Translations under genes and position numbers: made by a program
Notes under the pieces: generated by a model
Databases searched by the model: none
Told to the model about the DNA's origin: nothing
The model's input: only the letters and a program-made list of their open reading frames with translations
Part shown: positions 2,560 through 55,383 of the stretch, in pieces
Layout: each line of letters starts with the position of its first letter
Numbering within the stretch: position 1 is the stretch's first letter
From: an uncultured Verrucomicrobiae bacterium
Lineage (GTDB): Bacteria > Verrucomicrobiota > Verrucomicrobiia > Palsa-1439
DNA length: 64,000 bases
Direction of reading: 5' to 3'
Assembly (NCBI GenBank): GCA_963812605.1
Contig: CAWEWF010000004.1
Span: 362,143 to 426,142, forward strand

Positions 2560-3036
2560 GCCGGCGGGCGTTGGGGTGGGTGAGATGCTCCAAGCGGTTG
2601 TGCTCGGCCACGCGCAGCGCCAGGACTTGTTGGCGACGGGTGACCAACTCCGCCAGTTGACTCTGGGCGGCGCTCAACGCGGCGGTGCCGGCCGGGTGTA
2701 CGGCGGCGCCGTAAGCCGCCAGCACGGCGGCATCCAGTTGGTCAGTCTTGGCCAGCCGACCGGTGGCGCGGGCGAAGTCGCGCACGTGACGCGCGTTGAC
2801 TACCGAAACCACTACACCGGCGCGTGCAGGGCGGCCACGACGGCGCGTTCATAGCCGCCTGTGGCTTCGCCGATGACGTGCACGGATCCCAGAGCTTGCA
2901 GCCAACGCACCAAGGCGCGGTGGCCCTGAGGGTGGTTGGGAAACTGACGGAACTGCGCGCGGGATCCGCTGGCGGCGTGCAGATCCAGGGTGAGTTTGGC
3001 GACATCCATTCCGACGTAGACGATCGATGGCAACAT
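2560..3036 (-). pseudogene. IS110 recombinase N-terminal RuvC-like (DEDD) domain, truncated, frameshift near 2815
   Basis: YVGMDVAK, EATGGYE, VNARHVRDFARATGRLAKTDQLDA; no C-terminal Tnp domain. Confidence 0.88.
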
Positions 3037-3265
3037 GGTTAGACTCCTCCTTGCAATGCGAGCTGGTGGTGGCGCGGATGGGCGCGACCGCCGCTCTGGC
3101 AACTGTTCGAGCGTACCGACAGGCAACGCGGATGGATCCAGCTCCAAACGGACAGGTCTGAACCGAACCGAGGGCCACGACGATCACTTCCGCGCGCCCT
3201 TGGGGGGCATGCCCCCCAAGGGCCATCCTGTCGCTCCCACACGGTGGGAAACCAAGCCAGAGAGT
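3037..3265 (-). ncRNA. IS110 bridge RNA (predicted)
   Basis: TAGAAT -10 at 3273-3278; 28-bp perfect palindrome 3196-3223; guide-like CGTGGCCCT, TTGGAG, ACAGTTG and TTGCAAG in the IS621 order. Confidence 0.75.
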
Positions 3266-12505: not shown

Positions 12506-15252
12506 CCTGACCAGGCGGCAGGCCGATGATCTGGTTTCGCAGTCCTTTTCCGATACCCAACCGATCATCGAACAGGTGCTGGCCACGTGCGGCCTCGGCA
12601 AGATGCTCGATGTTGGTTGCGGCACGGGTTCGCTGGTGCGCCGTCTTCTCGAGCACGGCGTGGATGCTTACGGAGTGGATGCGGAGGAGGCGGCCGTTGC
12701 CCGGGCCAATGGAGGGGTGGCTGGCCGCTACCGGGTCGGATCGGTGCTGCACTTGCCGTATGAACCGGAGTCGTTCGATACGATCATTAGCATTGCCTGC
12801 CTGGAGCATCTTGCCGAGGCGGACATTGCGCCAGCAGCGTCGGAGTTGTACCGTGTCACCAAACGCTTTTTATATCTTCAGTTGACGGCACACGATCGAG
12901 CCTGGTGGGAAAACCACTTCTTTGCGGCGGGTTTTCGGCGACACCCACTTCTCCTGATGGCCGTGGGACTTCAATCGCTGAACACGAAAGCCGGGCCAAT
13001 CACACTGCTGTTTGAGAAGATTCCCCAAGCGGCCTTGCAGAAATACCCACTTGCCGCTCTCCAGACCGAAGGCAACTCGCCGATGGACGCGCTACGGCGG
13101 TCCGATCCTCGTTCCCACGCAGCGATTGCGCGCTACAGCCTCGCGAAGGATTACATCCGCCCGAATGATGTGGTCCTCGATCTTGACTGCGGGTTCGGCT
13201 ACGGCTCGGCGATCTTGTGGGACGGGTCGGAAGCGGCCAGGGTGATTGGCTTCGACCCGGGCCTGTCCGCCGTCGAATACGCGCAGGCAAATTTCTGCCC
13301 GCAACGACCAACGCTTGAATTCCGTCACGGCGACGCCGGCCAGTTGTCCGATTTCGCCGATGAGTCGGCGGACCTTGCCGTTTGCCTGGGAACGATCGAG
13401 AACCTGAAGGAAATCCGCCGCCTGCTCAAGCCGGGTGGTCGTTTGATCTGTTCCGCCTCGAAGGCGCAGTTTGATCTGCCCAAACTAACAGCGTTCGTCG
13501 GTAAACACCTATTGGTCGAACAGATCTTTGCGCAGATCGGCCAGCGCCTCGTCGAGGTCACGGCCAGCGCTCCTTTGCCCGATTCGGGAGGCGAGCAATG
13601 GCTGTTGATCGCGATGAAGGATCCCGTCGCAGGCCACAAGGCAAATTACGTGGAAACGGCTTTCCCGAGCGGCTTGAAACAGGAACTTAACATCACGGCT
13701 TTCGCGCGCGATTACCGCAACCCCTGGCTGGTGCGGTCGATGGTGACCATAGGGCAACGTTGCCGTTCGGCAGTATTGTTGCGGGACATCGCCCGCCGCG
13801 TGCTGGAAAGCGCGCCTTTCAGTTCGGCCGACGCCGGCGCTGCCCTGTGCGTTTCCGGTTACCTGCAACTTGAATCGCAGACCCCCGACGCGCAGGAGCG
13901 TGAACGGCTGGTCGACCAACTTCGCCGCTATGCCGATTCGAATGGGAAGACCGCCCACGCCGCGCGTTGGAGAATTTCCAATCGGTACCTGCTTGCGAAA
14001 CTGCTCCTGAGCGCTGGACACATTGCCCAAGCGCGCGAAGAATTCTGGAAATGCGCCCAGATGGACTGCCTCGTTTTCAGTCCCCTGCTGGCGACAAAGA
14101 CTGTCGACGCCGCATTTTGGGCGGGTTGGCTGTCCTCGCTCCAAGAACAACCGGATGAGGCGCGGATTGCCTGGCAGCAGGGCCTGAACGAAGCGCGCCG
14201 CGTGCTAAGCGGCAGTTGGGAAGAGATCGTGGGAAATCCCGACCGACCCGTCCTGTTTGGACTCCGCGAAGCGACCCTCGTGATGGATGCCGCGACGCAT
14301 TGCGCGAACGGACTTTATGCGCTGGAAAACCTGCCCCAGCGCCCCGGCTGATTCGGCGTCGCAGGTGCTTTACTCTTTGTCGAGCGAACTGAAGCGGCAG
14401 CAAGCGATTGGCTCGCAGATCAGGTCGTGGATTGGCGATCTCGAGCAGGCCCGCGACTGGCTGGAAAAGCAGCGAGTCAACTGGCAACAGGCAGCCCAGG
14501 AACAGGAAAAAATCGTCCGCGACCAGGGTACGCAGGCGAAGTCCCTGGAAGAAGCCATGCGCTGGCTCGAACAGCAACGCGCCGAATGGCAACGGGTCGC
14601 GGAGAACCGCGACAAACTGCTTAAAGAGCAAACGGCCTGGATCGAGAAGCGCGATCAGGCCGTGCGCTGGCTCGAACAACAACGCTCTGAATGGCAGCGC
14701 GTCGCGGAGAGCAATGACAAATTGCTCAAGGAACAAGCCGCTTGGATCGAGAAGCGCGATCAGGCCGTGCGCTGGCTCGAACAACAGCGCACTGAATGGC
14801 AGCGCGTCGCGGAGAGCAATGACAAATTGCTCAAGGAACAAGCCGCTTGGATCGAGAATCGCGATCAGGCCGTGCGCTGGCTCGAACAGCAACGCTCTGA
14901 ATGGCAACGGGCCGCGGAGAACCGCGACAAATTGCTCCAAGAGCAAACGGCCTGGATTGAGAACCGCAACCAGGGCATGCGCTGGCTTGAACAACAGCGG
15001 GCCGATTGGCAGCGCGTCGCGGAAAGCCGCGACAAATTGCTGAAAGAACAAGCGGCTTGGATCGAGAATCGCAACCAGGGTGTACGCTGGCTGGAACAGC
15101 AACGTGCCGAATGGGAGAGACTGGCCACGGATCGCAATTTGACGATCCAGGAGCAAGAGAAAACATTGGCGGAATTGCGCGAGAAGACCGTCCTCTTGGA
15201 GCAGCAACTTGCCGTGCATCCGTTGAAACGCTGGCTCAGGCGGTGGCGTTGA
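12480..15252 (+). CDS. tandem SAM methyltransferase plus coiled-coil protein, WbdD-like (probably one gene, frameshift near 14345)
   Basis: LDVGCGTG and LDLDCGFG motifs; the second ORF lacks a clear own start and ends HPLKRWLRRWR. Confidence 0.7.
14554..15130 (+). repeat. intragenic 105-bp (35 aa, 5 heptads) tandem repeat, 5 full copies plus a partial one
   Basis: Units start at 14554, 14659, 14764, 14869, 14974 and 15079; consensus AVRWLEQQRSEWQRVAESNDKLLKEQAAWIEKRDQ. Confidence 0.95.
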
Positions 15253-30023: not shown

Positions 30024-31023
30024 CTACAGTCCCAGCCGTTGGATGAGAAAGAAAATTACCGGCACGGTAAGCAAACTGAAGAGCGTACTGTAGAAAATCC
30101 CCTGCGCGCTGAGCGACACGTCGCCACCAAAACGTTCGGTGAACATGCTGCAAGAAATCGCCACGGGCATCGTCGCGATGAGGTAGCCGACCATTCGCGG
30201 GATTTCCGGCACGATCACGCCGGTTCTGAGCACGGCCCAACCGACCGCTATCGTGAGTAACGGCCCAACGATCAACCGGGCGAGCAGCACGCCCCAAAGC
30301 GCCCGCGAAGGCCGATGCATATGGAGTTCGAGATCGCCAAGTTGCGCGCCGATTGCCAGCAACGACACTGGGATGGTCATGCTGCCCACCATGCCCAGCG
30401 CCTGCACCACGGCGCTCGCGGCCAGATGCGGCGGCGATCCCGAGAAAATCGTCGCCGCTTCCCAGTTATGTGAGGAAGGCACAAGCAACGCGACAACAAT
30501 CCCCGCGGCGGTCGCGATCAGATCCGGGATTTTTCACGATATGGCTTGTCGCTTCACGCGCGGTCACGCCGCCACGCAGGAGCCAAACGCCAAACGACCA
30601 GAGCATGAGTTGCGCGCCGACATTATCGAGCAGGAGGGTCCGCACGCCCGCGTCGCCGTACATGGCCTCGACGATCGGCAGCGGCAGGAAGATCCAATTC
30701 GGTATCGCCGCGAGAAAGACGAAGGTGTTTTTCTGTTCGGCGCGACAGAAGAACGGCGCGATGAGCAAGCCCGCTCCGTAGGCGATGATGATCAATAGGC
30801 ACATGAGCAACGGCGCAAACCAGCTCTCCCGCAAAGCCCCCGGCGTGACCGTACGCAGCATTTGCGTGAAGACCAGCGCAGGGAATGCAATATCCACAAC
30901 AAACCGGCTCAGGATTTTTGTCGTTTCCGCGGGTAGGTAGCCGCGCCGGCGCACCAACCAGCCGACAACAATCACCAGGAACATCGCGGCGATTTTCACC
31001 AGGACGATTTGCCAGTCAACCAT
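30024..31023 (-). CDS. AEC family transporter (frameshift near 30520)
   Basis: PALVF, N-x4-LP, TIPVSLLAIG, ATMPVA, STLFSLLTVP. Confidence 0.88.
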
Positions 31024-31336: not shown

Positions 31337-32380
31337 TCATTCTGTTTCTGACACCAAGATGCTCGACTTCCCATTCCCGTTGACCAACGCGCCCTCGTCA
31401 AAACGGTAGCGACTGCCAATCAGGTATTCTTCGACATTTTCACTCGCAAGCCATCGCCGCCCAAGGCGCTCCGCTACAGCGCCGCAGGTATTGGAGCCCG
31501 CAAAGGGGTCATATACGAGATCACCCTCGGTCGTGAGGAGTTTAATGAAGAATTCTGGAAGTGCGGCAGGAAATCGCGCTGGATGAATCTTAACTCCATG
31601 CTGCTTGCAACACTTCGTGTAATAATCGTTCGCCGAGTTGTTGCCTAGCCGAAGCATCGACTCAGCGTCTGAGTCGTCTATCACGTTTGGCGGGATCGAC
31701 CCTCCAGACGAAATATCGGTGAACCCGGATTTGATGCTGTGTCCAGAAGGTCGGATGGTTTCAAGCACACCGCGTTTGTTCAAACGAATCATGTCAGCGC
31801 TGTATGGCCTAAGCACATTCCTGTTGTTGGCTTTCGGGTGCGGTGTTTTAGAAAACCACCAAAGATATTCGACGGAGTCCTTGATCCGTACCCGCCTCAC
31901 TGTCACCCACTCGGCTGGCATGGGCATTTTCGCTGGGTTATACCAAAAGGCTTCTTGCGCTAAATGGAAACCAACTTCCTCTACCAAAGCCACGAGCAGC
32001 TTAAAGTGATAGATGGACCGTGTAGGACTTCCCTGATTGTAGCTTCCGCCGATGTTTAGAACAAAACTACCATCGTCAGTGAGCACTCGCTTAAATTCTT
32101 TGGCGAAGCGTACAAACCACTCAACGTACTTGTGCTTCTCAACATTCCCGTATGCCTTTTTGAAATGCAGTGCATAGGGGGGGGACGTAAAGATCAGGTT
32201 GGCGCTATGGTCCGGCATGTCGGCGAGCATACACTCGGAATCACATAGATAGGCCGCACCGAAATCCGTTTCGTGGAACGGCTCCAGGCTTTTCACAAGT
32301 GCCGAGGGATGGACGCCCTTGCCGAAATGCAAATCCCTCTGCCTCTTCACGGTCGTTTTCACACTGGCTTCTGTTGACAA
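31337..32380 (-). CDS. beta-class N4-cytosine DNA methyltransferase, M.PvuII-like
   Basis: TSPPY before DPFAGSNT; DGSFV, RPSGH, GGSIPPN and HPARFP match recalled M.PvuII blocks. Confidence 0.9.
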
Positions 32381-32496: not shown

Positions 32497-32709
32497 AAAA
32501 AAGAAATCGCTATTTCGCCCTCCGATTGGGTCTCTCCGGCTGAGGCTGCCAGGATTCGCGGGGTTTCGCGGCAAGCGATCACGAAACTCATCAAGGGAGG
32601 TCGCATTGAAACGGTTGAAATTGCCGGACGAAAGCTCGTTCGGTTGTCCGCTGTCGAGGCTTTCAAAGCGAACCCACCGGGCCGAAAGAAGCAGAGCAAG
32701 AGAAAATGA
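32488..32709 (+). CDS. small HTH protein (excisionase/MerR-like), probable R-M controller
   Basis: [26 protein letters not shown]; ATGA-coupled to the nuclease. Confidence 0.8.
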
Positions 32710-33398
32710 GTAGACTCGACGAGATTCACAAGTTGCTCTTGCAGTGCACCCCAGAGGAGCGGCAGCAAGTATTTAAGATTCTTCGGTCGGAATTCCACAT
32801 CCATCCGTTTGAGAAAGCGCTTAATACGCGAGCCGAGGTCATCTTGGAGGCGATCAGCAAAGCACCAGATCTGACTATTCGTGGTGTCAGAGGCATTATC
32901 GCAGAGGCTAGTTTTATCGTGGATGTGATTGGCCCTCTTCTCGAATCAGGGTGGCGTGACGCCACACCGAAAGGAGACCTGCCATACGACTGCCTGATCG
33001 AAGACAATAAGGGTGGCGTCCGAGTACAGGTCAAAATGCAACGGCTCAAGGATCATCGTCCAATGATGGCATCAGAAGGATTTCGCCGCCTCTCCAAGGA
33101 CAAGTTTGTCGTTGAAACTCAGCGAACTCGCGGAGGCAAGGACGGCGCTGGAGGAAACACCCGCCCTTACAAATTCGGAGAGTTTGACATCTTGGCTGTT
33201 TCCTTGCACCCATCCACAAATGATTGGCGTGAATTCAGATACACAGTTGCCAGCTGGCTGCTGCCAGAGCCCGATGCTTCCTCGAACATTCTTAAATTCC
33301 AGCCGGTTTCGCAAATCCCGAACGCGGATTGGACTTCAAAATTCCTTGAGGCTATCGCCTGGTATCGCAGCGGCAAACGGAAACGTATCGCAGTCTGA
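32706..33398 (+). CDS. putative type II restriction endonuclease, PD-(D/E)XK fold
   Basis: E...PYD...VQVK motif; adjacent to the MTase. Confidence 0.75.
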
Positions 33399-33712: not shown

Positions 33713-34432
33713 GCGCAGGAGCGCGCCCCTCCGACTGCGCGGCAAGCGGAGTGCTTGCCCCGATCTCAAAATCGGGGCAGGCCCTGCAAATTGTGAATGT
33801 TAAACAGGCGACCCGCCTTCGCCAAGGCTACGGCGGGACAGGGACGCCTGTTCTACGCGTCAAATGAAGTTTGATGGGCGCCCGGAGATCATCAATCCAG
33901 TATCGGTAATCGATAATTTTTCTCGACAGCGGGTGGTGGGATGGGTATAGTCGGCGCAGTTCTTTGACATCCGCCTTCGCTAAAGCTTCGGCGTGACACG
34001 TCCGCCGTCGCACTTGGGGCTTCCGCCTTCGCGAGACCGCGGCGAGAGGCCACGGGCGGGACGCCCGCGCCACTACCGAGAGAAGGGGGGGGCCTCAAAA
34101 ACATGTGGTTGCCGCAGACGACAGCGGTGTCTCGTCGGACTCGGCTCCGTCCGAGTCGGCTACAGCGGCGGGAGATTAACAGGCGGGACGCCTGTTCAAC
34201 TCGAAGGGGACCACGGGCGGGACGCCCGCGCCACTACCGAGAGAAGGGGGGCCTGTTCAACTCGAAGGGGACCACGGGCGGGACGCCCGCGCCACTAGCG
34301 GACGAGGGGACTCGAAAACATGCGTTTCTGCGAAACGAACCCCCAAGTTAACTACCCATTTTGCAAGTACTTAGGCGGGCGGCTCTCGGAAAGTGGCCGG
34401 GTTCGTCGCTCGCGGTTGAAAACCGCTCCTAC
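33713..34432. repeat. cluster of REP-like palindromes and a 61-bp tandem duplication
   Basis: CCACGGGCGGGACGCCCGCGCCACTA at 34050, 34211 and 34272; other hairpins flanked by CTAC/GTAG. Confidence 0.85.
33901..33951 (+). promoter_or_regulatory. sigma70-like promoter with TATCG-N5-CGATA palindrome (copy 1)
   Basis: TCGACA-17-TATAGT; homologous to 41444-41495. Confidence 0.6.
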
Positions 34433-35193: not shown

Positions 35194-35683
35194 AAGTCCG
35201 CTCCTGTACTGGTAATTTGTCCGCGCTCGGCCAGGGGAAACTTACCGCAGACGGTTCGGGGTGAAGGGACACGGCGGGCGCGAGTTTCGGTCAGGCTGCG
35301 GGCTGCGTCGCTAGGGTTGTCAGGGTCGACGTGTATGCCGCAGATACGTCTATCGCGCGCGCGACCGTGTGGGATTGCTTCGCTACCGAACCGTCCACGA
35401 GAGGGGTCCTTGAAAATTGAATTGTTCCTTATTATTCATACTGACCGCAGCCATCTTCCGCATCCCGCGTGCCGGTTTTTTGCGACGTGCGATAACCTGC
35501 TGTCTGCGCCGCTTTTGCGAAGGCAGATTTGCGTCCAAGAACCCTTTTGGCCGGGTGAATGAACAATTCTGTCAAAGAACCGCTGCTGGGTTGCCGTTTC
35601 GGAAGGTCTTTCTTGACGAAGCTGCGGTAACACCGCTAAGGAAGACTGGTTGGGATCGAACGAATTTCGCAAGACTGAAAAAA

Positions 35684-36608
35684 ATGCAGCCGACTCTTCT
35701 GGTCATGGCCGCGGGCATGGGCAGCCGTTATGGCGGGCTGAAGCAAATCGACGCCGTCGGCCCCAACGGCGAAGCGATCATCGACTACTCAATTTACGAC
35801 GCCTTGCGGGCGGGGTTCGAGCGGCTGGTGTTTGTCATCCGCCGCGACATCGAAGCGGCCTTTCGGGAGGCGATTGGCGGAAAGTTCGAGAAGCGGATCG
35901 CGGTCGATTACGTCTTCCAGGAACTCGACAACCTTCCGCCTGGATTTTCCGTCCCGCCCGGTCGCACCAAACCGTGGGGCACGACGCAGGCGATCCTCAT
36001 GGCCAAGGAAGCCATACATGAGCCGTTCGCCGCGATCAATGCCGATGATTTTTATGGACACGAGTCGTTTCAGGTCATGGCGGATTTTCTGCGGGCGAGC
36101 GGCGCTGACTACGCGATGATCGGCTACACCTTGCGAAACACCTTGTCCCAACACGGCAGCGTGTCGCGCGCGGTTTGCGAATGCGATCCGGCTGGTTTTC
36201 TGCGGGCCGTCGTGGAGTTGCCCAAAGTCGAGAAGCGGGATCGCGGCTGCGCAAGCGGAAGACCGCGCGCTCAGCGGCGACGAATTGGTGTCGATGAATT
36301 TCTGGGGTTTTACGCCCGCGTTGTTCCCGCAATTGCGGGAACAGTTCAATGCCTTTCTGCGACGCAGCGGGCAGGAATTGAAAAGCGAATCCTACATTCC
36401 CACAACGGTGAACGAACTGGTGGCGTCGGGCGCGGCCCGCGTAAAAGTCCTGCGCACCCCCGCTTCGTGGTTCGGCATCACGTACAAGGAAGACAAACCG
36501 CAGGTTGTCGCCAGCATTCTCCGGCTCGTGGAAGCCGGCGAATATCCGTCGAAGACTTTGGACGTGAAGTCGCGGCGCAAATCGATCGAGCGACCTAGGA
36601 AGGTGTGA
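35684..36608 (+). CDS. sugar-phosphate nucleotidyltransferase (frameshift near 36250)
   Basis: MAAGMGSRYGGLKQ, INADDFYG, VSMNFWGF, WFGITY. Confidence 0.9.
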
Positions 36609-38541
36609 GGTCGGCTTTCAGGGCGGGCTTCAATTCGTTCACACGCGCGGCGGCTTGCTCCCAGTCGGCGGTCGCGCGGGCGAGGTCTTCCGTGACGGTG
36701 CTCAACTCGCGATTGACGGCGACGGCGCGGCCGGGTTTGTCGTAGGTCTCGGGCTTTTCCAGTTCGGCGGCCAATTCCTTCTGCTTCTGTTCCAGGCGGG
36801 CGATTTCTTTTTCCAGAGTACCCACGAGTTGTTCCTGTTCGCGACGCTCGCGCGACCGGACATTACGCGCCTCGGCTTCTGACCGCTTTTGTTCCTTGCC
36901 CTTGGGACGCGAAGAATTCACCGGCGGCGCGACCGGGACCGCTGACGCCGCGATCGCCGCGGCGATGGCCGCGGATTTTTCGAGATAGTATTGGTAATCG
37001 CCGTGGTAATGCATCAGCTCGCCGTTGTTCACGTGCAAGACGTACTTGGCGAGCTTGCGGATGAAATACACGTCATGGCTGATGAAAATCAGTGTGCCTT
37101 CGTAGGATTCCAGCGCGCCGATCAGCGCATCGATGCTCGCCATGTCGAGGTGCGTGGTGGGCTCGTCCATCAAGAGCAGGTTCGGCGGATCGAGCAGAAG
37201 TTTGACCAGCGCCAGACGGCTTTTCTCGCCGCCGCTGAGCACGCCGACCGATTTGAAGACATCGTCGCCGCGAAATAGAAACGAGCCGAGGACGGTGCGG
37301 ACGGTTTGCTCGGAGATGCGTTGGGGGGTGTCCAGCGCTTCCTCGACGACCGTGCGTTCGGCGTTCAGCATCTCGACGCGATACTGGGCGTAGTAACCGA
37401 CCTTTACGTTCAAGCCCAACTCGCGCGTGCCGCCCTGGACGGGGAGCACGCCCGCCAGCAGTTTGAGCAGCGTGGATTTGCCCGCGCCGTTCGGGCCGAC
37501 CAGCACGATGCGCTGGCCGCGCTCGGCCTCGAAGTTCATGCCGCGATAAACGACCGTGCTGCCATAGGCGTGGTTGATGTTCTTCAGCGTGATCACTTTC
37601 AACCCGCTGCGCTGCGGCTGCGGAAAACGGAATTTGATCTTGCGCGATTCGTTCACGGGCGCTTCGATCTTGTCCATGCGCTCGATCTGCTTGAGTTTGG
37701 CCTGCGCCTGCGACGCCTTGCTGGCCTTCGCGCGAAAACGGTCGGCGAACTCCTGCAAGCGCTGGATGTCGCGCTGCTGGTTCTTGTAAGCCGCCAGCAA
37801 TTGTTCCGATTGCGCCTCGCGTTGCACGAGATATTCGTCGTAGTTGCCGCGATAGCGGAGCAACTGGCTCTGGCGAATCTCGACGATGCTGCCGACCAGC
37901 TGATTCAGGAATTCGCGGTCGTGCGAGATCAGCAACACGCCGCCCGGATAGGTTTTCAGGTACTCTTGAAACCACTGCAACGCTTCGAGGTCGAGATGGT
38001 TGGTTGGCTCGTCGAGCAGGAGCAGGTCGGGCTGTTGCACGAGCAACCGCGCGAGATGCGCGCGCATGACCCAGCCGCCGCTCATCGCTTTCAGTTGCCG
38101 ATCGAAATCGCGCTCGCGGAACGCCAGCCCGCGCAGGATCGTCTTGGCCTGGGGTTCGAGCTGATAACCGCCGAGTTCGTCGAACCGCGCCTGCACTTCG
38201 TGGAAATCGTGCGACTCGGTGTCGTGACCCGCTTCGAACAACTTCAGCCGCCGCTGCAATTCGGCGATCTCGGGCGTGATGGCCGTCGCCAACTCCAGCA
38301 CCGTCTCCTCCCCCACGGGCGCGGTCTCCTGCGGCAAATGGCCCATCGTCCCATTGCGTTCGATGGTCACCTCGCCCTCGTCCGGCGAGTCGTAGCCGAG
38401 GACGAGCGAGAACAGCGTGGACTTGCCCGCGCCGTTCGGCCCGACCAGCCCGATGCGGTCGCCGCGATTGACCTGCAGCGACGCGTCCTCGAAGAGTACG
38501 TGCGCCCCAAAGGCCTTGGTCATTCCCGAAATCGTCATCAT
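36595..38541 (-). CDS. ABC-F family ATPase (YheS/Uup-like)
   Basis: Two GPNGAGKS / SGG / DEPT cassettes, no TM segments, C-terminal coiled coil. Confidence 0.95.
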   Translation of the reverse strand: MMTISGMTKAFGAHVLFEDASLQVNRGDRIGLVGPNGAGKSTLFSLVLGYDSPDEGEVTIERNGTMGHLPQETAPVGEETVLELATAITPEIAELQRRLKLFEAGHDTESHDFHEVQARFDELGGYQLEPQAKTILRGLAFRERDFDRQLKAMSGGWVMRAHLARLLVQQPDLLLLDEPTNHLDLEALQWFQEYLKTYPGGVLLISHDREFLNQLVGSIVEIRQSQLLRYRGNYDEYLVQREAQSEQLLAAYKNQQRDIQRLQEFADRFRAKASKASQAQAKLKQIERMDKIEAPVNESRKIKFRFPQPQRSGLKVITLKNINHAYGSTVVYRGMNFEAERGQRIVLVGPNGAGKSTLLKLLAGVLPVQGGTRELGLNVKVGYYAQYRVEMLNAERTVVEEALDTPQRISEQTVRTVLGSFLFRGDDVFKSVGVLSGGEKSRLALVKLLLDPPNLLLMDEPTTHLDMASIDALIGALESYEGTLIFISHDVYFIRKLAKYVLHVNNGELMHYHGDYQYYLEKSAAIAAAIAASAVPVAPPVNSSRPKGKEQKRSEAEARNVRSRERREQEQLVGTLEKEIARLEQKQKELAAELEKPETYDKPGRAVAVNRELSTVTEDLARATADWEQAAARVNELKPALKADLTPS

Positions 38542-38589: not shown

Positions 38590-38631
38590 TTCACCACGAA
38601 GAGCACGAAGAAGACACGAAGAACACGGAAG
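38590..38631 (+). repeat. TTCACCACGAAG-(NN)CACGAAG short repeat
   Basis: Three CACGAAG units plus one variant; same motif as 31175. Confidence 0.7.
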
Positions 38632-38635
38632 CGCT

Positions 38636-39130
38636 TTAACTTCCACAATCAGCGCACGACCCCAGATTTAAGTCATTCCTGATCCAATCGTGAAGCTCAC
38701 AACAGATTGTATCAGTGTTGTCGAGATCAACACTTTTATAAATATGACCAACTAGGTCAGTTGGCATGTGTTCAATAGAACGATCTTTCAGTAGCGCACA
38801 ACGTCGCCCCGTGATGAGCATGCTACCAACCTCAATTGTGAGGTTGTAATTTAGTCCTTCCTTTTGACGATCTTCGAAGAAGGCGACTCCATATTGGCTA
38901 GCCCACATATGAGCCGCAGTGTTTGCCCAGAGTGTATCGTCAATTAACCGGTCCGACGCCAGGTGAAATTCAAGACCATGCATTGCGCACACTTTGCGGG
39001 CGGCTGCTAGAGCCGGTCCTACCGGATCATCAGCGCGTCCTGATTCACTCGGATCTGGAAAACGCGTCATCCCAAATACATTTCTTTCAAATGGATGCGC
39101 CGCTAAGAATCGCCCAAGACTAGCCACCAA
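38636..39130 (-). CDS. TIR-like / nucleoside 2-deoxyribosyltransferase-like domain protein (start uncertain)
   Basis: NVFGMTRF...GVAFFE...NYNLTIEVGSM...LLKD...PTDLVGHIY, matching the N-x-N-x3-E-x-G and P-[ST]-D-L-x-G pattern. Confidence 0.65.
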   Translation of the reverse strand: MVASLGRFLAAHPFERNVFGMTRFPDPSESGRADDPVGPALAAARKVCAMHGLEFHLASDRLIDDTLWANTAAHMWASQYGVAFFEDRQKEGLNYNLTIEVGSMLITGRRCALLKDRSIEHMPTDLVGHIYKSVDLDNTDTICCELHDWIRNDLNLGSCADCGS

Positions 39131-39205
39131 TTGAGGTGGCGTGAATGTTGGTGGAACGATGGTATGAGCAATCTCTCCTAAGGCGTGCTGACTTGCACAA
39201 ATACT

Positions 39206-39721
39206 TCATTCTGCTTGTTTGTCATTATCTACGGGCTTGTTTTTCGTTCCTTTATTGACTTGATAGGTTTTTTTGAAGAACAGCTCGCCATGTACGGTGG
39301 GTCGGAAGCCGTTGCCAGAACGGCGGAATAGACTCTTACCTTCCCGTTGAGCGTTTTTATAGGTCATATCGACACGCTCAGGGACTGTAATGCCCACTTG
39401 ATCCGCTATGTCTCTGATCTCGTCAGCAGTAAACTCTTCAGACCCATATAGGCTGTAGTGGAACCCTGCCACAGCCAACGCATTATCAGAGGGCTTGCCT
39501 TGTTTCAGTTTCGAGAAGAAGCCATCAAGGTTAACAGTTTCTGTCTTCTGTTCAATCGAGTCGGCATCCCGGAGTTCGGGTTCTTCAGCCGCTTGCCTTT
39601 TGCCGAACGGTACAATGCCTTCAAGAAGTTTCTCAAAAGCGATTCGTCGCAGACTTTCGTCTTTAATTACGCCCACTTGTTCTTCTAGGCTCTTCAACTT
39701 CTCGGTAAGTTCGTCGTCCAT
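39206..39721 (-). CDS. hypothetical protein with predicted C-terminal winged helix
   Basis: LRRIAFEKLL N-helix; EEFTADEIRDIA...FRPTVHGE; GGAG RBS. Confidence 0.75.
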   Translation of the reverse strand: MDDELTEKLKSLEEQVGVIKDESLRRIAFEKLLEGIVPFGKRQAAEEPELRDADSIEQKTETVNLDGFFSKLKQGKPSDNALAVAGFHYSLYGSEEFTADEIRDIADQVGITVPERVDMTYKNAQREGKSLFRRSGNGFRPTVHGELFFKKTYQVNKGTKNKPVDNDKQAE

Positions 39722-39765
39722 TATTTTCTCCAATTAATCCGTATTGTTGTGCGTTGCCATTTCTA

Positions 39766-40249
39766 CTACTCCGTATCATTTGTGGTCAGCCAGCCTTCGA
39801 CCTCCTCCAGCGCACTACCTGTGAGACGATAGTGCTGCACTCCACCGATTTTTTCGGCTTTCATCAGTCTTCCTGTCCTCTCCAAACCAGCCACTACATC
39901 GCTTGGGTTCTTAGGTGATTTTTCACGGCTGACTCAAAGGAGTCTCTTAAGATCCCCGCTAGAAAAGCTTTCCTTCCCTGCTTGCGTTTCCGCCCAGTAC
40001 CCAAGGACGATCGCTTTGTCCGTCAGCTTGACTCTTCGACTCTTGCGAATCAGACTCTTGGGGCGCAAGGTCTCGCTTGGGCGATGTGACTACGTCAGTG
40101 CGAACTGCAACAGGAGCGACGTTCTGCGATGTTTCGCGGTAGAGAAGGAATTTAAACGCTTCGGGCTGTACTGGGCCGGGTAAACTCGCAGTAAATTCAC
40201 CCAGGGCCTTAAGAATTTCACCGAACTCTTCAATTGACTTTATCTCCAT
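39766..40249 (-). CDS. hypothetical winged-helix-like protein, same architecture as 39206-39721 (indels near 40052 and 39940)
   Basis: AGAGGAG RBS; reconstructed VQPEAFKFLL...DKAIVLGYW...ESFSSGDLK...PKNPSDVV...YRLTGSALEEVE. Confidence 0.7.
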
Positions 40250-40314
40250 ATCTCCTCTTTTCTTGCCCCCATAAAGAAGGGCTCTGGTTTCTGTTTTTTT
40301 CCACACCTGTACTA

Positions 40315-40342
40315 ATCATATATAGGAATTCACTTAATGCAA
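40315..40342 (-). promoter_or_regulatory. sigma70-like promoter for the three-gene operon
   Basis: TTGCAT-16-TATGAT, 13 bp from repeat copy 1. Confidence 0.6.
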
Positions 40343-40355
40343 GAATAATTGTGAT

Positions 40356-40415
40356 GGCACCGAATTGTAGTCTTCGGCTCCGTCGCTGGTTCACACCGAC
40401 TGCTTGGCGTGCCGG
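40356..40415. repeat. 60-bp conserved hairpin module, copy 1
   Basis: GGCACCGAATTGTAGTCTTCGGCTCCGTCGCTGGTTCACACCGACTGCTTGGCGTGCCGG. Confidence 0.95.
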
Positions 40416-40732
40416 GTCAATGAATGATAAGCGCCGGGTGTTTGCTGCCGCTGCCGCGCGAATACATGCACCGCCAGGATTGCCTCTTGACATAGCAATT
40501 GATGAATGTTTGGCTAGCGGCCCAAAGTCGGAGCTCCATATGATTGCATGGATCTAAACGAGGCACCGCCGAACGCAAACCGCTTCTTCCATGCAAGGAG
40601 TGGGTTTTTACGGGTCCGTGGTGGTTGTGTAGGCTTGGATAAGCCGATAATAAATCTACATGAAAACTAATATATATATCTTACTATTTCTAATATATTC
40701 TGTTACAATTACTTACATAATTATATCTACAT

Positions 40733-40760
40733 ATCATAAATAGTATTTCACTATAGGAAA
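40733..40760 (-). promoter_or_regulatory. sigma70-like promoter next to repeat copy 2
   Basis: TTTCCT-16-TATGAT, 13 bp from the repeat. Confidence 0.45.
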
Positions 40761-40773
40761 ACTGTATACATGC

Positions 40774-40833
40774 GGCGCCGAATTGAAGTCTTCGGCTCCG
40801 TCGCTGGTTCACACCGATTGCTTGGCGTTCCGG
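40774..40833. repeat. 60-bp conserved hairpin module, copy 2
   Basis: 56/60 identical to copy 1, ungapped. Confidence 0.95.
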
Positions 40834-41103
40834 ACTCGTAGAGATCAGGACAATCGGCGCGATAGCCTCATTAACCTGTATTTTCGGCAGATTTAAGGAT
40901 GTGGCCATCGGATTTTTCAAATCCAAGGCGATCACAAATTAGCATACGGTGGCATGAGAAACATACGGCAACTGCCTAAACACAAGTCGAGTCCGCGATT
41001 TAGAGGCCCAATGGATGATAGATGCGGTTGAAAGCACCTGTTCGTGTTTTATTTTTTTGATGCGTAAATAACACCGGTATAACGCATTCTGTTATATGAT
41101 TAG

Positions 41104-41131
41104 AGCATAAGTCGAATTGCATGGCATGCAA
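41104..41131 (-). promoter_or_regulatory. sigma70-like promoter next to repeat copy 3
   Basis: TTGCAT-16-TATGCT, 13 bp from the repeat. Confidence 0.55.
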
Positions 41132-41144
41132 GTAGTGAAGTCGC

Positions 41145-41204
41145 GGTGCCGAATTGTAGTCTTCGGTTCCGTCGTTGGTTCACACCGACTGCTTGGCATG
41201 CCGA
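41145..41204. repeat. 60-bp conserved hairpin module, copy 3
   Basis: 54/60 identical to copy 1, ungapped. Confidence 0.95.
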
Positions 41205-41443
41205 TGCGCACTGAGATACAAATTCAGCAGTTTTTCGGGTGGCTTGAGATCAAAGACGTGCTCGTCTCCTGACGTATCTTCCCACAAAATCAAGGTAGTA
41301 TTTTAATTAGTGGTGGCGCCAGGAATCCTTTCGCAGATTTATCCCTCGGTGCAAGCGCGGCAGACTTTTGGGCAGGAGCGGCAGATTCCTCCCGAGAATG
41401 GTGAACTTGAGCCCATAAAGGCAAAGGTAGATTGTCGTGTTGA

Positions 41444-41495
41444 TATCGTAAATCGATACTTTTTGCTGGACACGGTTTGTGGAGGTCGATATAGT
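41444..41495 (+). promoter_or_regulatory. sigma70-like promoter with TATCG-N5-CGATA palindrome (copy 2)
   Basis: TGGACA-17-TATAGT; homologous to 33901-33951. Confidence 0.6.
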
Positions 41496-41526
41496 TGGCG
41501 GGTGATGTATGAGCAGAAGACCAACA

Positions 41527-42040
41527 GCGGCAAGCGGAGCGCTTGCCCTACAATTCGGATCGGCGGGAGGGTGGAATGGAGGGGATTTGGAGACCTACGG
41601 TCGAGAAAAGTGCGCGGTCGGGAGACCGGCGCACAACAATACCACTCGAACGCAGAAAGCTGCGGGCGGGACGCCCACGCCACTAGCAGGGAGATCCAAG
41701 GGGGGCCTATATATGTTTCTGCGAAACGAACCCACCGTTTTGGGAGGGCGTTTTTGGTGTAACCTTCAAGGAACACGGGGGTTGTGACGGAAAGTCCTGG
41801 AACATTCGGTGGGTTCGTTTTGGAAAACGAACCCAATTTCGGGGGGTTGGTTGCCGCGGAAACGGTGCTGCGTCGAAAAACGAACCTAAAATAGGTGCTG
41901 TAAATGAAGTCGCCGGCTGGTTTGTGTGTTCTTCGTGCATGCGGGCTAGACCCTTCGCTTCGCTCAAGGGTGACAACCTTCTGGACGCAGTGGTCCAAAA
42001 TGAAGAACGACGGCAACCAAGATGGTTGCCCTACAATTCG
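41527..42040. repeat. REP-like palindromes and AAACGAACC motifs
   Basis: GGCAAGCGGAGCGCTTGCCCTAC; GGGCGGGACGCCCACGCCACTA; GGGTTCGTTTTGGAAAACGAACCC; GGCAACCAAGATGGTTGCCCTAC. Confidence 0.8.
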
Positions 42041-42300
42041 GAAACGATATTTGCGGTGCGGAGCAATATCTTGAATCGGGTGGGGCGTGAGATAGGCTGC
42101 GCGCTTAGTACTATGCGTTTCATCACGGGAAGGAAATCCGGGGAGCCCGTGCCGTACGGGCCGCTTTTCGTCGCTTTTCGTGAAATAATCGTTTTACATT
42201 TCCGAGATTTCTGTTCTAAGCTAGTGGTTGCTTGGAGAAAGGTTGCCTCGAGCACCTTCGAGGCCCATCTCGCGTCCGCGAGGCAGGAGACTGGCGAACC

Positions 42301-43707
42301 ATGAACATGACAGACTTACTGGCGAAAACAAAAACTGAATTGCTGAAGATCGCTCACCGACACGGCCTGCGGGGGGTGTCCACGCTCAAGAAGGAGGAGT
42401 TGGCCGACAGGATTCACGAGTCCCAGCAGCGGCCCAAAGGGAGCACCACCAAACAGCCGCTGGGTCCCAGTGTTGTCGCCCGCAGAATCGCTGACGCTGT
42501 CAAACGGCGCGCGGTTCGCAAATACGCCGGGGAACCCGTCGCTCACGCCGCCCCTGTCAAAGCCCGAACACAGGCTGTCCGGCCGGGACATCGCGCCAAA
42601 GTTGCCGCGAAATCCAGGCCCATGGAAATCGAGGCGGAAGAGACCGGCCGCCCATCCGAAGAACTTTCCGCCCACAAATTCGATGTCACGCCGGCAGCGG
42701 CGGCGCCCCGGCAGGTTTTTCAAGAGGAGCACCTGGGCGAATTGCCCGATGCCTACGGCACCGGCCATCTCTTTCTCACCGCCCGCGATCCGCATTGGCT
42801 TTACGTTTATTGGGATCTCAATTGGCAGCAGATGGCCGATTTTCGCGGCCAGGCCGCGGATGGCCGTTTGTTGCTGCGCGTTTTCGAGAAGAACCACGCG
42901 GAACCGTTTCAGGTACTGACGCTCGGCCACGATTCACGCAACTGGTACATCCCCGTCAACAAGGCCGCCACCACGTACACTGCCGAGCTGGGTTTCTGGC
43001 GGCACGACGGCCATTTCCACGTAATCAGCCGTTCGCGCGAAGCCACGACGCCGCCCGATGCGATCTCGCCCGATACCACGGCCCGGTTCGCCACCATCCC
43101 GATCGATATTTCGTTCCAGGAACTTTTTGCGATCATTCGCGGCCACATGCGCGACGGCGAGGCTTTGGCCGAAGCGTTGCATCGCCTGCAACTCGCGGGG
43201 TTCCGCTTCCCCTTCAAACTCGGGCTCGAACTCGGCCCGTGGACCACGGACCAGGCTGCCGAGTTGGAGCGCATTCTCGGCGGCGATCTGTTCCGTCGCA
43301 TCCAGATGGGGTCGTTCGAAATCACGGAGTGGCTGCGCCGCCGTTTGCAGGAAGAACTCAGTTCGGGGATGTCCAGCGCGTTCAGTCCGTCGGGTTCGAG
43401 TTGGTCGGGCGCGCCGCAGAAGGGGTTCTGGTTCGCCGTGAACGCCGAGTTGATCATTTACGGCGCAACGGAACCGACGGCCAAGGTCACCATTGACGGC
43501 AAGCCCGTGAAATTGCGCAGTGACGGGACCTTCTCGTTCCAATATGCGTTCCCGGATGGACAGTACAAACTGCCGGTCGTCGCCATCTCGGCAGCCGGTG
43601 ACGACCAACGCGAAGCGCAACTGACCTTTGAACGCCAAAGCCGCACGAAAGGCGGGGTGGGCAAGGTCAAACAACCGTCGCACCTCAAAGCGCCTGCCGC
43701 CGCGTAA
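42301..43707 (+). CDS. DUF4912 domain protein with Rho N-terminal-like motif
   Basis: TKTELLKIA...LKKEEL; LTARDPHWLYVYWD; AELIIYGATEP. Confidence 0.88.
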   Translation: MNMTDLLAKTKTELLKIAHRHGLRGVSTLKKEELADRIHESQQRPKGSTTKQPLGPSVVARRIADAVKRRAVRKYAGEPVAHAAPVKARTQAVRPGHRAKVAAKSRPMEIEAEETGRPSEELSAHKFDVTPAAAAPRQVFQEEHLGELPDAYGTGHLFLTARDPHWLYVYWDLNWQQMADFRGQAADGRLLLRVFEKNHAEPFQVLTLGHDSRNWYIPVNKAATTYTAELGFWRHDGHFHVISRSREATTPPDAISPDTTARFATIPIDISFQELFAIIRGHMRDGEALAEALHRLQLAGFRFPFKLGLELGPWTTDQAAELERILGGDLFRRIQMGSFEITEWLRRRLQEELSSGMSSAFSPSGSSWSGAPQKGFWFAVNAELIIYGATEPTAKVTIDGKPVKLRSDGTFSFQYAFPDGQYKLPVVAISAAGDDQREAQLTFERQSRTKGGVGKVKQPSHLKAPAAA

Positions 43708-54307: not shown

Positions 54308-54967
54308 ATGGATAAACTCTCAAAATGCGTCGCGGAAGCCATCGGCACGTTCGCCCTCATCTTCATCGGCATTGGCGCCATTTACGCCAGTAACGAGCAC
54401 CACATGGATCTGCTCGGTGTCGCGTTGGCCCACGGCCTGACCATCGCCGTCATGGTCTCCGCTACCGGTGGCATCTCCGGCGGCCACCTCAATCCCGCCG
54501 TGACTTTCGGCCGCTTGTGCGGCGGCAAGATCGACCTCAAGGGCGCCATCAGCTACTGGGTTTCGCAACTCGATCGGCGCTACCATCGCCGCATTTGTCT
54601 GCCTCGCCCTGTTCAACCCGGCCATGGTCGATAGACGGAACACCGCAACTTGGCGGCACCACGACGGCAGCTGCCGGCATCATCATCGAAGCCATCACCA
54701 CCTTCTTCCTCGTGTTCGTCGTGTACGGAACGGCCATCGATCCGCGCGCGCCGAAAATCGGCGGCCTCGCCATCGGCTTGACCATCACCATCGGCATCCT
54801 CTTTGCCGGGCCGTTGACTGGCGGGCGCGATCAATCCCGCCCGCGTGTTCGGCCCCGCGCTTGCCGTCAGCAACTGGACCAATCATTACGTGTACTGGGT
54901 CGGCCCCATGCTCGGCGGCGCCCTGGCCGGCATCACCTACAAAACATTTCTTTTGGGCAAGAGTTAA
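54308..54967 (+). CDS. MIP family aquaporin (frameshifted)
   Basis: [10 protein letters not shown]; second NPAR...GPA, YWVGP. Confidence 0.9.
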
Positions 54968-54996
54968 AAAACTATCGGGCCGCCAGGAAAATAACC

Positions 54997-55383
54997 GTGG
55001 TATCGTTCTTGATCTTTTGGTTCATCACCTTCGCGTCTCTCGCTGTGACGGTGGGTTCGCTCTCGTGGATTTACAACGTGCTCGGGGGAGACTTGGGGCT
55101 TTCGGGATGGAAACGGGAAGCGGTCATCGTCGCGGTCGTCTCATCCCTGCAGGCGTTTCTCTTCTGGCTTTCCATCTCGCTGGGCGTCGGCGTGGGCAGG
55201 ATGTTTTTCCTGGCGGCTGTCGGGCTCTTTGTCTTCTACAAAGCCACGCATTCCTCCAGCAGCCTGTTCGAGGGCACCTACGCCATGGACAACGGCGCCA
55301 TCTTCGCCATCGCCGCCGTCCAATTCGCCATTCTGTTCGGCCTCGGAATCCTGCTCGCCATTGCCGTCGGCAGAGCGCACTGA
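54997..55383 (+). CDS. small multi-TM membrane protein
   Basis: Hydrophobic 128-aa ORF, artificially fused to an aquaporin frame in the ORF track. Confidence 0.6.
   Translation: MVSFLIFWFITFASLAVTVGSLSWIYNVLGGDLGLSGWKREAVIVAVVSSLQAFLFWLSISLGVGVGRMFFLAAVGLFVFYKATHSSSSLFEGTYAMDNGAIFAIAAVQFAILFGLGILLAIAVGRAH

Follow-up and report, generated by a model that had tools for sequence, protein, structure and literature searches.

TIR domains of the CAP12/Pycsar type (PF10137), among them those of TIR-STING and PycTIR, are NADases, and winged-helix proteins act as antitoxins in type II/IV toxin-antitoxin systems such as AbiEi/AbiEii. The available sections of two papers describe DUF4145 as a HEPN family and as the RNase domain of the RAZR defense protein (PMC3710099, PMC13017515). 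Here we describe a locus that resembles each of these in part. It lies in a 64,000-nucleotide (nt) stretch of DNA from an uncultured Verrucomicrobiae bacterium (assembly GCA_963812605.1, contig CAWEWF010000004.1, positions 362,143 to 426,142; hereafter the window) and consists of three co-oriented open reading frames (ORFs), g1, g2 and g3, on the minus strand at 38636-40249, between genes encoding an ABC-F ATPase and a DUF4912 protein. We put at about even the chance that this block was acquired horizontally as one copy of an uncharacterized modular conflict system in which a winged-helix adaptor is combined with a swappable toxic domain. A conflict module, whether for defense or of a toxin-antitoxin-like kind, is suggested because the adaptor is conserved, the putatively toxic domain is exchanged between loci, the family is spread patchily over the phyla and neither Pfam nor PADLOC has a model for it. 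Tight translational coupling and the location of the block in a low-GC (guanine plus cytosine) islet (0.41-0.53 across 38600-41000 versus 0.59-0.66 in the flanks) also count in favor of this reading.

A first-pass annotation of the DNA had singled out the block as a candidate new anti-phage operon inserted in AT-richer DNA. Its layout as a low-GC, co-oriented three-gene block was borne out by the ORF positions, the base composition and the Pfam matches of the flanking genes (given below), and its status as a candidate new system stands, as no known family or PADLOC model fits g1, g2 or g3; searches of the Pfam, NCBIfam, PHROG and PADLOC libraries gave no meaningful match to any of the three. 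Scanning of the ORFs across the window agreed with the further remark that no cyclase, reverse transcriptase or Cas gene is nearby. CBASS and Pycsar require a cyclase and an effector having a sensor domain, whereas the ORFs scanned included no cyclase and no STING, SAVED or cyclic-nucleotide sensor, and PADLOC gave no match to either system. Thoeris is likewise a poor fit, with no ThsA or ThsB PADLOC match to g1, g2 or g3 and no SIR2 or SLOG gene among the ORFs scanned. Where TIR-STING and Pycsar have their sensor, the full-length relatives of g3 have a winged helix and the window copy has nothing; the partner proteins are small winged-helix proteins.

The TIR-like domain of gene 3

The g3 ORF (38636-39130, minus strand) encodes 164 amino acids (aa) from a nominal TTG to a TAA codon. 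The first-pass annotation had assigned it a TIR-like or nucleoside deoxyribosyltransferase (NDT) fold from its motifs, and structure prediction agreed. The AlphaFold2 (AF2) model, in which beta strands and helices alternate, had a mean local confidence (pLDDT) of 95.1 and a predicted TM-score (pTM) of 0.90. Upon comparison with the PDB by Foldseek, the model matched two groups of proteins about equally well. The first was composed of TIR domains (SfSTING 7un8 as the top match at E 4e-4, RRS1, RPP1, BtpA, SpbK, SARM1, AbTir and MAL; E 4e-4 to 7e-3, TM-scores about 0.45-0.55), which have the flavodoxin-like fold. The second was composed of the PF05014 superfamily enzymes 1s2l purine deoxyribosyltransferase (E 1e-3), DNPH1, MilB and BcmB (TM-scores 0.5-0.56). 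In a viral structure library the best match, at TMq 0.69, was to a phage protein that bears the annotation CMP hydrolase, and a CAP12/Pycsar TIR (TMq 0.59) and NDTs were also matched. A sequence-profile search of the PDB with the g3 alignment returned 0 matches. Hence, the model places g3 in the TIR/NDT fold.

All of the motifs named in the first-pass annotation were present in the three proteins. They read N-Y-N-L-T-I-E-V-G and P-T-D-L-V-G in g3 and are family features and not chance. Alignment of g3 with 90 representatives taken at 50% identity (91 sequences) gave the consensus NPNVxxELG...GRRCLLLKD...PTD, in which E100 was invariant and N94, N96, G102, P123 and D125 were at least 90% conserved. 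Residue E100 is a candidate catalytic glutamate, and the N-x-N-x3-E-x-G pattern with its invariant glutamate is a putative point of likeness to the PF10137 TIR domains. By analogy with those domains, g3 would be expected to cleave the N-glycosidic bond of NAD+ or of a nucleotide upon oligomerization. The link to PF10137 is transitive as judged by profile searches: g3 itself falls below the model, which was matched by 16 of 20 more distant g3 relatives at E<=0.01, with 3 exceeding the gathering score of 24.7 bits. Matches of the distant relatives to PF05014 were weak, the best being 24.3 bits against a cut-off of 28.8. Some of these distant relatives are fused to STALD SLOG, CHAT or HEAT domains.

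The family is large. Searches gave 908 homologue clusters at E<=0.01 in a collection clustered at 90% identity and 1139 representatives at E<=1e-3 in a 50%-identity library. The TIR-like effector family thus comprises at least 908 clusters at 90% identity from many soil phyla and, because it is invisible to Pfam and PADLOC, it is missed by current surveys of defense systems. No match to the TIR-like effector was found in a phage collection. Ten small enterobacterial plasmids (3.6-13.6 kilobases (kb); Citrobacter, Salmonella and Klebsiella) encode proteins matching the TIR-like domain, as a distant relative only. On one of these (NZ_OW967268.1, 1648-2586) the gene product is a 312-aa hypothetical protein, the C-terminal half of which hhalign joined to the TIR-like domain as a homologue (99.9%, E 1.2e-31); the N-terminal half differs.

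Putative winged-helix proteins and exchange of the effector domain

Gene 2 (39206-39721, minus strand; ORF listed as 39206-39733) is intact and encodes 171 aa from a likely start at ATG 39721, preceded by GGAG, to a TGA at 39206-39208. Its 35 homologue clusters range from 125 to 191 aa (most 164-191), and since 33 aligned homologues end at the same place the stop codon is genuine; recoding of this TGA was considered and rejected, as it is the natural end of the family. In the AF2 model of g2 a pair of helices at the N terminus is joined by a disordered linker (residues 38-61) to a C-terminal domain, of which residues 77-153 were predicted at pLDDT >95 with the topology H-b-H-H-bb-H. The nearest solved folds found by Foldseek were the winged helices of LysR, MarR, ORC and ArsR proteins, none of them significant (best E 0.35). 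No Pfam helix-turn-helix family reached its cut-off for g1, g2 or the effector N terminus.

Homologues of g1, which in intact form has about 160 aa, make up 17 clusters (16 with proteins of 155-167 aa and one of 89 aa), the best being 69% identical to the window protein. The first-pass annotation had described genes 1 and 2 as related and winged-helix-like, having a common N-terminal helix motif (EAFKFLL in g1 and IAFEKLL in g2), and the topology of the g2 model and profile comparison both support this: hhalign joined the g1 and g2 families at 93.7% probability (E 1.8e-7) over 99 columns that include the N-terminal helices. By these profiles the two families are paralogues. The N-terminal domain of the full-length TIR-like effector belongs to the same set, and g1 is the closer of the two relatives, its C-terminal domain matching at 94.8% (E 5.5e-8) as compared to 47.9% (E 1.9e-4, 76 columns) for g2.

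A single scan, in which the g2 alignment and the pattern [FY][RK]PTVHGE[ALS] were applied to species-representative genomes, gave 14 loci, which carry eight higher-taxon labels: Verrucomicrobia (including Chthoniobacterales), Acidobacteriota (including Terriglobia), Planctomycetota, Peribacteria (a metagenome-assembled genome), Sumerlaeota, Betaproteobacteria, Deltaproteobacteria and Pseudomonadota. All 14 have a winged-helix-effector fusion adjoining the g2 homologue. In three loci (L001, L002 and L014) this is the full-length TIR-like effector of 292-295 aa, and in the other 11 it is a 247-aa protein of which the C-terminal domain is of a different, AF_1680/HEPN-like type. The N-terminal domains of the two effectors are related (hhalign 90%, E 1.6e-6). 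The g2 gene and the effector gene overlap by 4 nt in 10 of the 11 AF_1680-type loci; in L001 and L002 the effector gene precedes g2 with a 13-nt gap. The third, upstream gene differs from locus to locus. The first-pass annotation had made co-occurrence of the components a test of its proposal; the g2 homologue and the effector do keep company in every locus, but no member of the g1 family was found there, and thus the exact three-gene set was not recovered elsewhere.

The 247-aa effector gave no match in our local copy of Pfam and was assigned by a protein atlas, at a score of 0.99, to PF27235 (AF_1680), DUF4145 being a minority lead only. LRNRxGHP was invariant in nine sequences of its C-terminal domain, in which R218-N-R-x-G-H223 gives an Rx4H arrangement, a putative point of likeness to the DUF4145/RAZR HEPN RNases. 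RAZR differs in having a zinc finger where this effector has its winged helix, and the 247-aa effector is not encoded in the window. We regard the C-terminal domain of this sister effector as a candidate HEPN-like domain. Prediction of a complex between the L014 effector and its g2 homologue scored 0.00 in two runs, which is evidence neither way. A plasmid collection gave no match to g2 or to the AF_1680 effector, and searches of the open-access literature (AF_1680; CAP12/TIR-like plus winged helix plus HEPN effector) gave no paper describing such a module. In L013 (9800-10311) the g2 homologue was matched in two frames and is apparently frame-shifted, its AF_1680 partner being intact. In L010 the pair adjoins two ORFs that by eye are MazE/MazF-like, a resemblance unconfirmed by any family search.

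Given these arrangements, the module might work as follows. A g2-type adaptor or regulator, composed of a helical N terminus, a linker and a winged helix, would be encoded beside an effector that, when intact, begins with a winged helix of the same type and ends with a toxic domain, either TIR-like or HEPN-like (AF_1680). A third, variable paralogue, which would be g1 in the window, often precedes this pair. The winged helices may bind nucleic acid or one another and so keep the effector inactive until its release or oligomerization is triggered, probably by DNA that invades the cell or by a product of a phage. The TIR-like domain would then cleave the N-glycosidic bond of NAD+ or of a nucleotide by means of its invariant glutamate, and growth would stop by abortive infection or by a toxin-antitoxin-like arrest. 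If this is a real defense or toxin-antitoxin-like system, it would provide a new control logic for TIR-like and HEPN effectors, with paralogous winged-helix adaptors in place of cyclic-nucleotide signaling or STAND sensors and a single adaptor family serving two unrelated killing domains. The window copy is chiefly of use as a pointer to the family, and it may also be an experiment of nature in how a domain is lost or split off.

Condition of the window copy and competing explanations

Most homologues of g3 have 265-300 aa, and the canonical members about 280-295, with the g3 domain at the C terminus. The first ~100 residues of the full-length homologues are winged-helix-like and are followed by a linker, DLAAL...HPVIPPxLAPP. 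The g3 protein aligns to the 295-aa effector of L014 only from residue ~109, and hence ~108 N-terminal residues, the whole winged helix, are absent. Homology of the g3 frame to the full-length effectors runs upstream to about 39185-39205, and the g2 stop codon is in frame with g3. Three-frame translation showed that an ATG at 39207-39209 (minus strand) overlaps the g2 TGA to form an ATGA junction (39206-39209); this ATG opens only a 29-codon ORF, which is one base out of frame with g3. There is no Shine-Dalgarno sequence before the TTG and GTG codons at 39130 and 39127. A natural class of short (~200 aa) effectors was considered and rejected because the three proteins suggesting it, P0006 (201 aa), P0003 (212 aa) and P0329 (193 aa), cluster at >=90% identity with proteins of 289-293 aa and are gene calls made from internal methionine codons. 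The g3 ORF keeps every conserved residue across its 164 codons and has no internal lesion.

Gene 1 (39766-40249, minus strand) begins with an ATG at 40249 behind AGGAG and reaches a TAG at 39766-39768. The first-pass annotation had called this gene broken, and comparison with the intact homologues located three single-base lesions in it: one extra base near 40054 and an insertion/deletion (indel) pair near 39945 and 39927. The in-line TGA at 39934-39936 falls in the out-of-frame stretch between the members of this pair, and recoding of that codon was rejected, as the stretch is short and the two indels compensate one another. Counting one at the g2/g3 junction, all of the small lesions in the block are single-base indels. 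Three other genes of the window are split in the same manner into overlapping ORFs in different frames, the halves of each matching consecutive parts of one Pfam model: a Mem_trans (AEC) transporter (30024-30488 and 30466-31023), an NTP_transferase (35417-36598 and 36285-36608) and a MIP channel (54308-54634 and 54517-55383). Such splitting points either to an assembly in which single-base indel errors are frequent or to genes that are really decaying. Since these genes are split likewise, assembly error is a plausible explanation of the indels in the block, but it cannot explain the ~108 residues missing from the effector. Hence, there are two views of the window copy: it is a remnant in decay, or it has been rewired into a split form and its small indels are assembly errors.

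That the window copy is a non-functional remnant is a serious contender, to which we give slightly less than even credence. A deletion of ~320-340 nt would have taken the winged helix of the effector and thrown the ATGA-coupled start out of frame, after which g1 gathered indels and only g2 stayed intact. The alignment from residue ~109 in a family of much longer canonical members, the 29-codon ORF one base off the g3 frame, the want of a Shine-Dalgarno sequence and the crowding of three indels within 130 nt of g1, with none in g2 or g3, all fit such decay. Against it stand the unblemished conserved residues of g3, the single-base nature of all four small lesions and the at least three other split genes, which make assembly error a real alternative. 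A bolder reading, that g2 marks a widespread unannotated immune or conflict system with interchangeable winged-helix effectors, of which the window holds a functional split version, with g1 (the closest relative of the effector winged helix, as given above) supplying that function in trans and with indels that are assembly errors, seems to us improbable. Somewhat unlikely, though deserving of attention, is a toxin-antitoxin or addiction cassette not dedicated to anti-phage defense, in which the winged-helix protein g2 would serve as antitoxin and autorepressor and the toxin would be the winged-helix effector. As in such pairs, translation of a small winged-helix protein is coupled to that of a protein with a toxic domain, the genes being adjacent and coupled in the type II-like manner by the 4-nt overlap in 10 of 11 AF_1680-type loci and joined in the window by the ATGA junction; the proteins are small, and domains of both the TIR-like and the HEPN kind are classic in toxins (for HEPN, in the available sections of PMC3710099). 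However, it is unusual for one antitoxin family to serve two unrelated toxin domains, except by binding the winged helix that both effectors have, L001 and L002 have the order effector then g2 with a 13-nt gap, and neutralization by g2 is putative. The module also differs from AbiEi/AbiEii in lacking any sequence relation to that pair, in an effector that has its own winged helix and in the third paralogue often present.

Two further explanations are far less probable. A housekeeping nucleotide-salvage enzyme (an NDT/DNPH1/MilB-like N-glycosidase) encoded with two transcriptional regulators would account for NDT, DNPH1, MilB and BcmB being matched about as well as TIR domains, for the CMP hydrolase annotation of the best viral match and for the LysR- and MarR-type DNA-binding domains nearest to g2. 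We think it very doubtful, because the block is a low-GC islet, an unrelated HEPN-like domain takes the place of g3 in relatives, distant relatives are fused to the conflict-type modules STALD, CHAT and HEAT, the family is patchy across phyla and the loci examined had no synteny with nucleotide-metabolism genes; g3 gave no PF05014 match at cut-off, and the context of the module is mobile and conflict-like rather than metabolic. The first-pass annotation had itself proposed that the effector is controlled by a heterodimeric sensor or a ribonucleoprotein (RNP), made of g1 and g2 and possibly using RNAs from upstream repeats, and we hold this to be highly improbable. The paralogy of g1 and g2, with their common N-terminal helices, counts in favor of this model, as does a repeat with a ~58-nt core that is present three times directly upstream (40337-40414, 40755-40832 and 41126-41203, found by repeat finding and alignment), each copy being able to form two hairpins. 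The copies are spaced 418 and 371 nt apart in ~2 kb (40250-42230) that contain no convincing ORFs. However, nhmmer found the repeat only three times in the window and in none of the 14 related loci, and the RNP idea is therefore left without support. Covariation among the three copies was next to nil (0 compensated pairs on one strand and 1 on the other), Rfam gave no match on the whole window at the gathering threshold or on 40200-42300 at an E-value threshold, the intergenic region had no blastn match in the plasmid collection, and the g1 family was found beside g2 in none of the 14 related loci. Thus, the repeats adjoin the operon and nothing ties them to it, and the repeat part of the sensor/RNP model is close to refuted. 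A promoter after each repeat copy, seen by eye only, was rejected, as a minus-strand consensus scan reported none.

Several points weigh against the conflict-module reading itself. The 14 loci are a biased sample, having been obtained with one peptide pattern from one collection, and in them the nearest approach to the g1 family is a 167-aa protein of L004 (BLASTP E 2e-6; hidden Markov model E 1e-4). The winged-helix assignment of g2 comes from topology and profile links, with 0.35 as the best Foldseek E-value, the Foldseek TM-scores of g3 are moderate (0.45-0.69), and even at E<=1 neither PF10137 nor PF05014 is matched by g3 itself. In the window copy the effector winged helix and an in-frame start are lost, g1 is broken, and, as short effectors elsewhere are internal-methionine calls, a natural short class is without support. 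A putative role in defense would have no anchor in a known system. In favor of the reading, a PADLOC scan of 101 neighboring proteins, in which no core protein of the module itself was matched, gave a non-generic defense match within 6 kb in five of the 12 loci with long flanks, a count that stands without a background control; these neighbors were TIR proteins (L004, L006 and L011), DpdB/DndB (L007) and NsnA (L013), the kinase and ABC matches being generic.

Other repeats and neighboring genes

A terminator-like hairpin at 38624-38647 (minus strand) covers the g3 stop codon. It was found by a consensus scan and is weak evidence, since the number of terminator-like sites in the region was not above shuffled expectation. 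Three other repeats were seen in the window: a tandem array at 14449-15222 (D1; period 105 nt, 6 copies), a GC-rich unit of ~61 nt present in three copies at 34024-34306 (D5) and a 37-nt pair (D10; 41523-41559 and 42006-42042) that flanks the far end of the islet. No tRNA genes were found in the window.

A second lower-GC patch (48-53%), 5-7 kb from the block, is occupied by a DNA methylase gene (31337-32380, minus strand; PF01555, E 3.7e-40) and an adjoining 230-aa ORF (32706-33398, plus strand) with weak PD-(D/E)XK and PHROG 5018 matches. These two genes are probably a small restriction-modification pair. Signs of mobile DNA are also found at the window start, where an ORF with a T5orf172/MUG113 domain (1251-2108) and an IS110 transposase fragment (2812-3147) are located.

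Of the two genes flanking the block, that encoding the DUF4912 protein is at 42232-43707 (E 3.3e-23). The ABC-F gene (36595-38541; PF00005, E 1.8e-49) is co-directional with g3 and lies 95 nt downstream of it. An ABC-F ATPase gene also adjoins the module in the acidobacterial locus L004 (8111-9748), where it is convergent. The presence of ABC-F beside the module in both places may be coincidence or may reflect a shared insertion neighborhood.

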